Source: a virus (taxonomy: Duplodnaviria; Heunggongvirae; Uroviricota; Caudoviricetes). Taken from it: a DNA stretch of 5,721 bases. The stretch lies in the IMG/VR virus record IMGVR_UViG_3300029085_000025. One strand, given 5' to 3'. Of this stretch, positions 1 to 3,000 are shown in pieces; position 1 is the first letter of the stretch; every line of letters starts with the position of its first letter. Made by a program: the position numbers.

Positions 1-3000
1 GGCTGTTGTGGTGGGGTTGTCACTCAGGCGTATGGTCAACCTGACAATCCGGTGTCCTCAACGGGGAAAGAGTAACCCCGCCATACTTACCGCCGCGCCA
101 TTTCGCGGATTACCACAACGCTGAGAGCACTTAGCCAGTTACAACACCACACTTTGTCGCGGCTCCATAAATGCCCTCATCGTTGCACCCTGGTCTCTTC
201 CCAGGCGTCAAACCGAATCGCCACGCTGGTTAGGCGTCTTATCAGCATCCTCATTGACTTGCACATTCCGGCTATCTGGTTTGTTTGCCCGAGCAAGGAG
301 TGGATTGTCCCCTTTAACGTCCCCAGACCGCTAACGACGCATGTGCCATACGCCGTGTTACAACCAAATTTTGTTAGTACCTTGTTTGTAGGTCTGGAGA
401 GAAAGATAAAATGAAGTTGCGCATTATGCAAGTGTTTTATTGCGAGATAAGCAATTTGGTGGGTGATGAAAAGCCACCTTCTGGTGGCTAATTGATGTTG
501 AGGTAGGGGGTTAATTGTGTCGCTTAAGGGTCTGTGACTGACTGATTAAGACCTTTCCAAAGACCATAAACCGGTGTTCGTTTTCGCTGGTAATTCCCCA
601 TTCGCGGTAAATCTGATTATCAGAAATTACCAGCAGTTTATCAGGTATCATTTGCAGTCGTTTGACGTAAATTTTATCATCAAAACCAAATACATATATA
701 CCATCCCCATCAAACTGATTGATACTGATATCAACGAAGATGAGATCTCCTGGCTCAATGGTTGGACACATACTGTCCCCACGAACGTTGATAACTTTAA
801 TGTGATTTGCTGGTCGTCCACCAAACATCGATACAGCATTATCAGTTCTGTATTCAATGGCATGAATCACATCAATGACATCACCGCCCTGGATAAGGCC
901 ATTTCCCGCACTGGCACTGACATCCAGCATTTCAATACGGAATACATCCTTCACCTGCGTAACATCCTCACTAATACTGTTTTTACATACAGTATTACTT
1001 TTGAGGTCTGAGGTAAAGAGATCAGCAATATCAACACCTAAGCTCCTGGCAATATTACTCAGGGCTTGTTCAGTGAATTGTTTCTGCTTACCTGTTTCGA
1101 GGCGCGAGATATTCGCCGCATCCACTCCTATTGCTTCAGCGAGATCGGCGATTTTCATGTTCTTCGCCTGGCGAAGTTGTCTGACTCGATTTCCTATGTT
1201 CATGCGTTTATTACATTTCTTTATTGCGCGTTAAGCAAATCAACTTGCGCAAAATATTTGCGTGAAATAATATGCTCATCACGCAATATGTGGAGGTTAT
1301 ATGCAATCACCATTACGGAATGTGCGTAAGGCGCACGGATTTACTTTGCAGCATGTTGCTGCGGGCGTTCAGGTCAATCCAGCGACGCTGAGTCGTATTG
1401 AAAGACTGGAACAAATTCCATCTATCGATCTTGCAGAACGTCTGGCCAATTTTTTTAAGGGTGAAATCAGCGAAATGCAGATTCTTTATCCGGCACGTTT
1501 TCAATCTAGCCAAAACCAGAATGGGTTTAAACCACAGGAACAGGAGGTAAGCCGTGGGTAAGCATCATTGGAAAGTGGAAAAACAACCTGAGTGGTACGT
1601 GAAAGCTGTCAGAAAAACTATCGCGGCATTGCCTGGGGGTTACGCTGAAGCTGCTGACTGGCTGGATGTAACAGAGAACGCTTTATTCAACCGCCTTCGT
1701 GCAGATGGCGATCAGATTTTCCCGCTGGGATGGGCAATGGTTTTACAGCGCGCGGCTGGCACTCACTACATTGCGGATGCTGTCGCACAATCTGCTGGTG
1801 GGGTGTTCGTATCGCTTCCTGAAATTGAGGAAGTAGAGAACGCCGATATAAACCAGCGCCTGCTGGAAGTCATCGAACAGATCGGGAATTACTCAAGGCA
1901 GATTCGTTCGGCAATCGAAGATGGGGTCGTGGAGCCACACGAGCAGACAGCAATTAATGATGAGTTGTATCTGTCAATTTCGAAGCTCCAGGAGCATGCA
2001 GCACTGGTCTACAAAATCTTTTGCGCTCCAGAAAAGAGTGACGCCCGCGAGTGTGCAGCTCCGGGCGTCGTGGCGTCGATTGCTTCTGGTTGTGGAGAAA
2101 CTAACGCATGAACAGTTTAACGGCAAATAACCGTTTGTCGCAACAGCTGGTGGTCAGCGTCGCTGAACACCTGTTGTTACGGCATGAATGCAGATTACCA
2201 AATCACCTGGCTGTAAGTAACCACAGAGAACTTTACCTGACTGTGGGGGGCGAGTTGTGCAGGAACTTAACCGCTGGTTTCGTGACGGAAGAGGACTTTA
2301 TGTTCATGTTATTCGTTGGGAGCCAGAAACACAGCGCGTTATCTATCTTCGCAAAGACTACCAGCATGAGTGCTTTAGTCCTTTGTGGAAATTCAGGCGT
2401 GATTTTGTTGAGTGTGAAGGACCACCAGCACATTGATTCTGCCATTCCGGGACGTTACACTGTTCAGGCACCTTATAAAGCGGGTGTCGGGATTGGCGTC
2501 CTGGAATTGCATACGGCGACAATTGGCGCGTTAGCGTCTTTTTTGTTGCTACAACTCAGCTATACCCAAATTATGGTGGGCTGGGTGGGGGCACCGAAAG
2601 GTGCGCCGGTTTCCGTATGCGCCGGTTACGCCAACCCTGCTCAGTTCACCACCAGCGAAATTGGCGTTTCCGGTGGTGGAAGTTATCCATTGCATACGGA
2701 GGCTGCCATCATGGCTACGATCCCAACCCTCACTCAACCTGAAATTGCCATCGTTGATGGTCAGGCTGTTACTTCATCCCTGGCTGTTGCCAACTTCTTC
2801 TCCAAACGTCATGACGATGTACTGAAAAAGATCCGCACGCTTGAATGTTCCGCATCATTCACTGCCCGCAATTTTTCGGTGAGTGATTACACCGATTGCA
2901 CAGGCCGCAAACTACCTTGCTATCAAATAACCCGCGACGGCTTTGCGTTTCTTGCTATGGGTTTCACGGGTAAACGTGCTGCCCAGTTCAAAGAGGCATA

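Follow-up and report, generated by a model that had tools for sequence, protein, structure and literature searches.

We analysed a stretch of 5,721 nucleotides (the window) from the IMG/VR virus record IMGVR_UViG_3300029085_000025 (Caudoviricetes), which covers the immunity and early-right part of an e14/SfV-like lambdoid prophage. The investigation was focused on the region 2108-2710 between a CII-like gene, ymfL, and the coding sequence of a Rha-family regulator, which an initial annotation had listed as an enigmatic long open stretch. Judged by its sequence, this region harbours the control elements of an IsrK-C4 antisense-RNA immunity module, similar in type to those of P4, P1/P7 immI and Gifsy-1 isrK. 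The locus holds a gene of the DUF4222 family, a candidate promoter, the small RNA (sRNA) IsrK, the antisense RNA C4, two sets of C4 target sites (a1/b1 and a2/b2) and the Rha gene. A single long open reading frame (ORF) spans the DUF4222 gene, the promoter, IsrK, C4 and the target sites a2/b2, and ends as the Rha protein. All coordinates are summarized in Table 1. Prophage DNA of E. coli S88, MS7163 and other strains is 100% identical to window 2000-2800, and 2989 of 5426 complete E. coli genomes, i.e. about half, carry DNA similar to this part.

Table 1. Features of the analysed locus and the corresponding regions of phage P4 and the E. coli K-12 element e14. Positions refer to the window unless another locus (L157, L159) is named.
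Feature	Position	Strand	Remarks
CI-like S24 repressor	511-1203	minus	
Cro-like helix-turn-helix gene	1301-1561		
CII-like gene ymfL	1554-2111	+	Pfam Phage_CP76, E 6e-15; named ymfL by RefSeq in identical E. coli S88 DNA
Long ORF, 382 codons	2108-3256	+	ATG overlaps ymfL TGA (ATGA 2108-2111); GGAG 2094-2097; ends as Rha protein
DUF4222 gene, 59 aa	2257-2436	+	GTG start; GGGGGG 2245-2250; other frame, nested in long ORF; annotated by RefSeq
Candidate sigma-70 promoter of sRNA/Rha transcript	2433-2461	+	-35 TTGATT 2433-2438; 17-nt spacer; -10 TACACT 2456-2461
IsrK/seqA-type sRNA	2468-2544	+	Rfam RF01394, 58.9 bits (gathering score 50)
C4 target sites within IsrK	a1 2493-2499; b1 2509-2516	+	a1 TTGGCGT; b1 GCATACGG
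C4/CI-type antisense RNA	2569-2656	+	Rfam RF01695, 80.7 bits (gathering score 45), full length 1-87
AUG at C4 5' end	2573-2575	+	in frame with ATG 2711, 46 codons 5' of it
C4 target sites, Rha mRNA	a2 2661-2667; b2 2692-2699	+	a2 TTGGCGT; b2 GCATACGG, overlaps Shine-Dalgarno GGAGG 2698-2702
Rha-family regulator/antirepressor-like protein, 181 aa	2711-3256	+	nested start ATG 2711
Run of overlapping early genes	3' of long ORF 2108-3256		
Phage_ASH comparison	window 2456-2743; L159 (phage P4) 8168-8584	minus (L159)	
K-12 e14 counterpart of long ORF	L157 2823-3181; window 2108-2436		ymfM, 112 aa, 'cell division inhibitor', SfiC
Nested DUF4222 ORF in ymfM	L157 3002-3181		TTG start, 59 aa, intact, unannotated, other frame

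For the comparison with relatives, 120 IMG/VR loci were retrieved with a C4-core pattern that takes no account of reading frames, yielding 96 unique segments. A contig pattern scan gave a further 25 matches; 13 GC-rich unrelated ones were set aside, and only the 12 Enterobacterales loci were used. The minimum-free-energy fold of the C4 RNA equals the Rfam structure (z = -3.87) with two segments exposed. It consists of an outer stem (2574-2590/2635-2651), a hairpin at 2591-2604 and the b' hairpin at 2605-2626 with the b' core at 2613-2620, while a' (ACGCCAA, 2628-2634) is single-stranded. In the C4 family the mature RNA is processed from a longer precursor by RNase P and others. Covariation was determined by explicit pair counting over eight specificity representatives, with 500 shuffles and slid partners as controls. 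All 27 pairs of the C4 stems were 100% paired in the eight representatives, and 6 of them carried double-sided changes. IsrK ends in an intrinsic terminator found by scanning, with a hairpin at 2525-2538 and a U-run at 2539-2544, the stem of which is 95% paired in relatives. From the position of the promoter we infer a transcription start at G2468, 6 nt after the -10 element. The promoter region 2437-2467 is nearly invariant in the 96 homologues, and so are the stretches 2437-2505 and 2573-2610. Distant relatives show better hexamers, TTGACN-N17-TATANT, at the same distance from isrK.

Evidence for the module came from the pairing between C4 and its targets. The a' segment is complementary to a1 and a2, and the b' loop is complementary to b1 and b2. 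Six b' classes were found in the 96 unique segments; b1 and b2 match b' in each of them, and the distance of b2 from the ATG (-19) is the same in all classes. Over the eight representatives, 99.2% of the cells were paired for a1/b1 with a'/b' and 98.7% for a'/b' with a2/b2, with twelve double-sided pair changes. None of the 500 shuffles was as good, and the slid controls were paired to at most 49%. Helix by helix, 98.4% of the cells were paired for b1:b' and 96.9% for b':b2, each with 6 of 8 pairs compensatory, compared to 100% for a1:a' and 98.2% for a':a2. The a sites covary too in APSE-7, a Klebsiella phage and an Stx2a phage. An RNA duplex-energy matrix of cognate versus non-cognate C4/target combinations was discarded as too noisy, because shared hairpin stems dominate it; a longest-run version with G-U pairs gave only a modest contrast, and both were superseded by the pair counting.

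The DUF4222 gene is read in a frame different from that of the long ORF. It matches PF13973 (E 1e-13, 51 bits versus a cut-off of 27) and, over the full length, phrog_1343 (E 4e-36). As coding test, distinct variant codons were counted across the homologues frame by frame as synonymous/non-synonymous. Within the gene, counts of 22/20 were obtained for the DUF4222 frame, 7/35 for the long frame and 6/33 for the third frame (22/20 versus 13/68 for the other frames pooled, Fisher p 4e-5). The nested ORF of K-12 e14 is 64% identical to the DUF4222 protein of the window without gaps, compared to 33% with gaps for the long frame, i.e. DUF4222 is far better kept than YmfM. In the spacer between ATG 2108 and the DUF4222 gene an imperfect long hairpin was seen at 2136-2183, in the part which carries the common 6-nt deletion and most of the divergence of the Salmonella relatives. 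Folding 2108-2256 alone gave no significant structure (z = -1.29).

Downstream, the internal ATG 2711 with its own GGAGG at 2698-2702 was found as the initial annotation had described it, and the Rha signature is indeed confined to the downstream part. Phage_pRha (PF09669; E 5e-31, 107.5 bits versus 29.9) matches residues 222-307 of the long ORF only, and TIGR02681 reaches 104.4 bits versus 45.95. Both matches begin about 10-20 residues after ATG 2711; PHROG antirepressor and Rha families match as well. By analogy, we infer that the 181-aa Rha protein is the C4-controlled product. The AUG at the 5' end of C4 is in frame in 92 of 92 IMG/VR segments scored, and its equivalent in distant relatives opens an ORF of only 12-40 codons. 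In RefSeq, the Rha protein begins at GTG 2414. As many as four nested products are conceivable, with 382, 280 (from GTG 2414), 227 (from AUG 2573) and 181 aa. No conserved small ORF was found between C4 and Rha: a separate icd/orf45-like candidate at 2617-2742 was rejected, as its ATG falls into the b' loop, which is variable, and is lacking in SfV.

Do the first 201 residues of the long ORF form a protein domain? They contain few charged residues (D+E+K+R 11.4% versus 18.2% for the Rha part) and much His (4.5% versus 1.7%), just as first noticed from the sequence, while the supposed richness in Cys was not confirmed (2.0% versus 1.7%). The stretch had also been called unlike any family, which is not correct. 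Residues 117-212 match Pfam PF10554 Phage_ASH (E 2.9e-17) and several PHROGs. However, PF10554 also matches the obsolete 'cI' ORF of P4, which overlies the Rfam C4 match (CI RNA); since one and the same model recognizes an ORF over an RNA gene, the Phage_ASH match is no evidence for a protein. The PHROG families matching the long ORF were built from the same sort of long-ORF calls, as was Phage_ASH. What PF10554 and PHROGs 821, 3960, 995 and 6928 model appears to be translated sRNA genes, not a protein, and we flag PF10554 and several PHROGs as families of this origin.

No amino-acid constraint was detected in the long frame, where the variant-codon counts (7/35, 11/59, 14/52) are at random level. 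This includes the Phage_ASH stretch (11/59, 14/52; pLDDT <30), and no frame of 2437-2710 carries a coding signal by these counts. Protein identity of the long frame between relatives is lower than nucleotide identity. AlphaFold gave predicted local distance difference test (pLDDT) values of 21-29 for residues 1-220 versus 55-79 for the Rha part. The underlying alignment had little depth, with 20 sequences of at least 81% identity, so that the low N-terminal values are supportive, not decisive. The idea that a 382-aa Rha protein begins with a novel folded domain (residues 1-201), with long and short isoforms differing in activity, can draw on the open and coupled frame, on the Phage_ASH match and on the frequent deposition of the 382-aa product in NCBI nr, where the exact sequence occurs on 136 contigs. 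We nevertheless regard it as highly improbable: counts are random, nothing foldable was predicted, and the nucleotides are accounted for by the gene in the other frame, the promoter and two covarying RNAs, with Phage_ASH apparently being a translated RNA gene. Because of the other-frame DUF4222 gene, the random-level counts, the low pLDDT and the apparent RNA origin of Phage_ASH, 2108-2710 is not considered a protein domain, and what looked like an orphan domain in about half of the complete E. coli genomes is resolved as known elements. In the database, the 382-aa product is named 'Rha family transcriptional regulator' and, many times, also 'peptidase' (e.g. P0008, P0021); for the latter name no support was found in the evidence of this analysis.

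A different role for the long frame is suggested by the eta gene of phage P4, which holds an internal constitutive promoter, as cited in the part of PMC10111431 on P4 immunity (Forti et al., 1999, J Bacteriol 181:5225). According to the same summary of Forti et al. (1999), transcripts from this promoter terminate via CI/seqA interactions and yield CI, and Kil is a truncated form of Eta. The passages of PMC10111431 dealing with eta further state that its translation, rather than its product, matters: translation stops termination, and the upstream promoter reads through. The ORF of the window appears to possess every feature of eta that can be recognized at the sequence level. We consider it fairly probable that it is an eta-like read-through ORF.

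The frame was found open from the ATGA-coupled ATG 2108 straight into the Rha domain, as claimed initially. The rough chance estimate of about 1e-4 for such an open frame was upheld, with P = 5.6e-5 for 201 open codons from base composition. The frame was open in 5 of 20000 dinucleotide shuffles, and the other five frames of 2108-2710 contain 6-12 stops each. Of the 84 unique IMG/VR segments with common upstream DNA, 83 have the frame open, as do SfV, cdtI, Ayreon and Salmonella phage 118970_sal3. In close relatives, no stop variant occurred among 239 variant codons of the long frame, while 6.4 were expected (P about 3e-4); 14 stop variants were observed in each of the other two frames. The sole common indel in the long frame is a 6-nt in-frame deletion. 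Twelve segments with unrelated upstream DNA keep the frame open over 102-188 codons, with an in-frame ATG just 5' of the promoter. Hafnia yong2, K-12 e14 and P4-like elements likewise have an open frame that directly adjoins the upstream gene, and the ATGA coupling to that gene recurs in the window, sal3, K-12 and P4. Openness is kept within the subfamily with the common junction GGAGGCTGCCATnATGGCTAC, to which P4 belongs. The suggestion of a non-coding stretch that happens to be open was therefore right with regard to the RNA genes, but not with regard to chance, since the frame is open beyond chance in close relatives. The stops looked for in homologues were found in distant relatives only (VT2-Sakai, phiV10, APSE-7, a Klebsiella phage, P1).

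An even longer frame of this kind was seen in a P4-like element of Escherichia sp. ESNIH1 (L143, 6153-7899, minus strand). There, an eta-like frame is open over 481 codons and crosses the promoter, isrK, C4 and a kil-like gene, with which it is out of frame. By their appearance, we take the gene upstream of this frame to be of the AlpA/Vis type and the gene at its far end to be integrase-like.

We are aware of several observations that weigh against the eta-like reading. One ribosome cannot read both the long frame and DUF4222, because the two overlap out of register. The promoter matches the consensus at only 8 of 12 positions and was for this reason missed by the consensus scan. The open-frame statistic assumes independent variant codons, and its signal comes mostly from the sub-region 2437-2572 (P 0.019). 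Among close relatives, a 1-nt deletion breaks the long frame in L060, the frame closes at the promoter in L130, and a 1-nt deletion in L143 and L145 puts the nested ATG out of frame. Finally, the frame is closed in P1, VT2-Sakai, phiV10, APSE-7, the Klebsiella phage and 8 of the 12 other Enterobacterales modules, so the IsrK-C4 RNA system as such needs no open frame. It is because of the exceptions L060, L130 and L143/L145 and the assumption of independent codons that we do not rate the eta-like function higher.

These observations also bear on the possibility that the IsrK-C4 module is real and the long frame functionless. Only the 181-aa Rha would then be made, the frame would be open by shared ancestry, G-rich first codon positions of the structured RNAs and chance, and the long protein entries in the databases would be annotation artefacts. 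Consistent with this are the missing amino-acid constraint together with pLDDT values of 21-29, the location of the conserved gene in another frame, the closed frames of P1 and most distant relatives and the frameshifts tolerated in L060, L143 and L145. Moreover, a single change would turn few codons of the long frame into stops, with 6.4 stop variants expected versus 12-14 in the other frames. On the other hand, those 6.4 expected stop variants were met by 0 observed, the common indel of 6 nt keeps the frame, the ATGA coupling recurs in four different elements, and long open frames occur in diverged contexts including P4, whose eta is reported to be functional in the part of PMC10111431 concerned with it. 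Weighing both sides, we regard a functionless frame as possible but rather doubtful.

The annotation of K-12 e14 lists this frame as a gene of its own, ymfM (112 aa), and remnants are frequent in lambdoid mosaics. Both facts could speak for a decayed gene remnant, as had also been proposed for the region, with the older gene joined to Rha through a deletion. However, all elements are intact, conserved and at fixed spacing, with the near invariance of 2437-2505 and 2573-2610 described above; the module is present in those 2989 of 5426 complete E. coli genomes, and K-12 carries the deleted, not the ancestral form. A decayed remnant is thus scarcely credible. The e14 locus of K-12 resembles the window in ymfL, the ATGA-coupled start (MNSLT...), the frame and the nested DUF4222 ORF. 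It differs in that the frame stops after 112 codons and that the promoter, IsrK, C4 and the Rha part are replaced by the chimeric ymfN. K-12 ymfM uses the ATGA-coupled frame of the long ORF, cut short by the e14 deletion, and would be the 5' remnant of an eta-like ORF. In the ymfM paper the ORF was cloned in pBAD24, with no frame-specific mutants (bioRxiv 10.1101/2020.11.19.390815), and doubt is raised here over which frame of K-12 ymfM causes SOS filamentation.

Combining the RNA module with an eta-like ORF, the following course of events is proposed, with the first steps modelled on the homologous systems of P1, P4 and Gifsy-1. Transcription from the internal promoter would, in the lysogen, yield mostly the short IsrK, while some transcripts would read through and be processed to C4. 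C4 would pair with a2/b2, occlude the ribosome-binding site of Rha and block initiation at ATG 2711. Rha would thereby be silenced, with polarity on downstream genes being probable as in P1 and P4. IsrK, via its decoys a1/b1, could titrate C4 or remodel the leader, switching Rha on. Once PR is derepressed, ribosomes leaving the CII-like gene would re-initiate at ATG 2108 or at the in-frame start just 5' of the promoter, and would translate in the long frame through the IsrK terminator, C4 and a2/b2. Translated PR transcripts would become insensitive to both the terminator and C4, with an N-terminally extended Rha as by-product.

In its boldest form, this proposal transfers the P4 eta principle to a lambdoid PR operon, with a product-less ORF kept open only for bypassing the checkpoint and for a long Rha isoform. 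As a corollary, K-12 ymfM would be a truncated 5' stump and the nested DUF4222 possibly the real effector. We put this forward tentatively and would not yet call it probable. If the eta-like function holds true, translation-dependent bypass of RNA immunity reaches from satellites to lambdoid phages. The module itself constitutes an RNA immunity checkpoint with at least six exchangeable specificities, placed ahead of an antirepressor-like gene in prophages that are common in E. coli, Shigella and Salmonella, which bears on prophage cross-talk and induction.

Two side observations were made at and around the module. Some prophages hold two IsrK-C4-Rha modules in tandem: this applies to L049, with two C4 matches 866 nt apart, L028 and L156 (2766-3620), and to the loci of the proteins P0001 and P0005 (592-598 aa). 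As the second module of L028 joins the first codons (MIRN...) of the gene which in the window comes after Rha, module duplication by recombination is suggested. The final part of the CII-like gene contains, at 2042-2077, an inverted repeat (GACGCCCG...CGGGCGTC) which is unchanged even in the Salmonella relative with its different flanks. Read on the minus strand it is followed by ACTCTTTTCT, and together they recall a leftward oop-type antisense terminator. A small plus-strand hairpin at 2064-2077 was called by scanning.

IsrK-C4 systems are known for P4, P1, P7, N15 and Salmonella lambdoid prophages (PMC3632133), for Gifsy-1 (PMC4825925), and in Rfam from Weinberg et al. (2010). The GenBank record of APSE-7 annotates both RNAs upstream of a Bro-N gene, and CI/seqA homologues within Bro-network genes of satellites were described (PMC10111431). 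In P1 and P4, C4, isrK-like and c4-a1b1 matches were found at the same relative positions, with the isrK-like match of P1 (35 bits) and the c4-a1b1 match of P4 below the gathering score.

P4 is among the closest known systems. An isrK-like RNA is followed by a C4-family RNA in the same order, and the threefold occurrence of the a and b sites is another common trait. The architecture of a long coupled ORF with a nested start, pointed out in the initial annotation, is that of P4 eta/kil. In both, an ATGA-coupled long ORF covers the two RNAs and the sequence just 5' of the isrK-like RNA, in which PLE of P4 reportedly lies. A nested start is read in the same frame, with the seqC/b2 target as its ribosome-binding site, and the junction GGAGGCTGCCATCATGGCTAC is identical. 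The P4 frame is open over 214 codons, 199 of them from an ATG overlapping the TGA of orf88. It takes in the upstream region, seqA/isrK, CI/C4 and seqC, and the 65-aa kil is read in the same frame. Differences exist in the nested product, which is a 181-aa Phage_pRha protein here and the 65-aa Kil in P4; Kil-like MATT... proteins were found only in P4-like loci among those compared. Furthermore, the host of the module here is a lambdoid early operon after cI, cro and CII-like genes, while P4 is a satellite; the long ORF here also overlaps the other-frame DUF4222 gene, and an additional piece of about 75 nt separates seqA from CI in P4.

The immI locus of P1/P7 (c4, icd, ant1/ant2) shares the C4-family RNA (68.8 bits in P1), the order a1-b1-c4-a2-b2 with its spacing, and an antirepressor-like controlled gene. 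The b2 site ends 11 nt before the icd ATG in P1 and 11 nt before the Rha ATG here, and P1 too has nested in-frame starts, ant1/ant2. In contrast to P1, no icd-like coupling ORF exists here, C4 targets the Rha ribosome-binding site directly, and no C1 operator is evident at the window promoter; the P1 frame through c4 closes 14 codons from the C4 AUG. The sub-threshold isrK match of P1 (L158 3230-3311) includes a hairpin and a U-run between b1 and c4. The immI leader of P1 may also make a short IsrK-like transcript.

With the isrK-orf45(STnc1160)-anrP locus of Gifsy-1 (PMC4825925), the window shares an IsrK with a terminator, which is leaky in Gifsy-1, an AUG at about +106/+107 from the start site which opens a short frame, and an antirepressor-like gene downstream. 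An own promoter (a candidate in the window) and a processed downstream RNA (predicted for the window) would be further common features. In Gifsy-1, the first AUG of orf45 lies at +107 and is required for anrP translation, and IsrK activates antirepressor translation in trans (PMC4825925). STnc1160 is not called a C4 homologue there; this link was made by Barquist et al. (PMC3632133). As a BLAST search of the phage collection with the Rfam isrK consensus gave no Salmonella Gifsy record, the equivalence of AUG 2573 and orf45 rests on the positions given in PMC4825925. The two loci differ in that orf45 stops on the anrP AUG (AUGA coupling), while AUG 2573 is in frame with Rha and no stop intervenes, and in that the Gifsy-1 module lies downstream of antQ and the window module after the CII-like gene. 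With the IsrK-C4 system itself already described, the particulars of the present locus are the Rha-family nested product, the direct targeting of its ribosome-binding site without an icd/orf45 stop, the location in a lambdoid PR operon and the overlapping DUF4222 gene.

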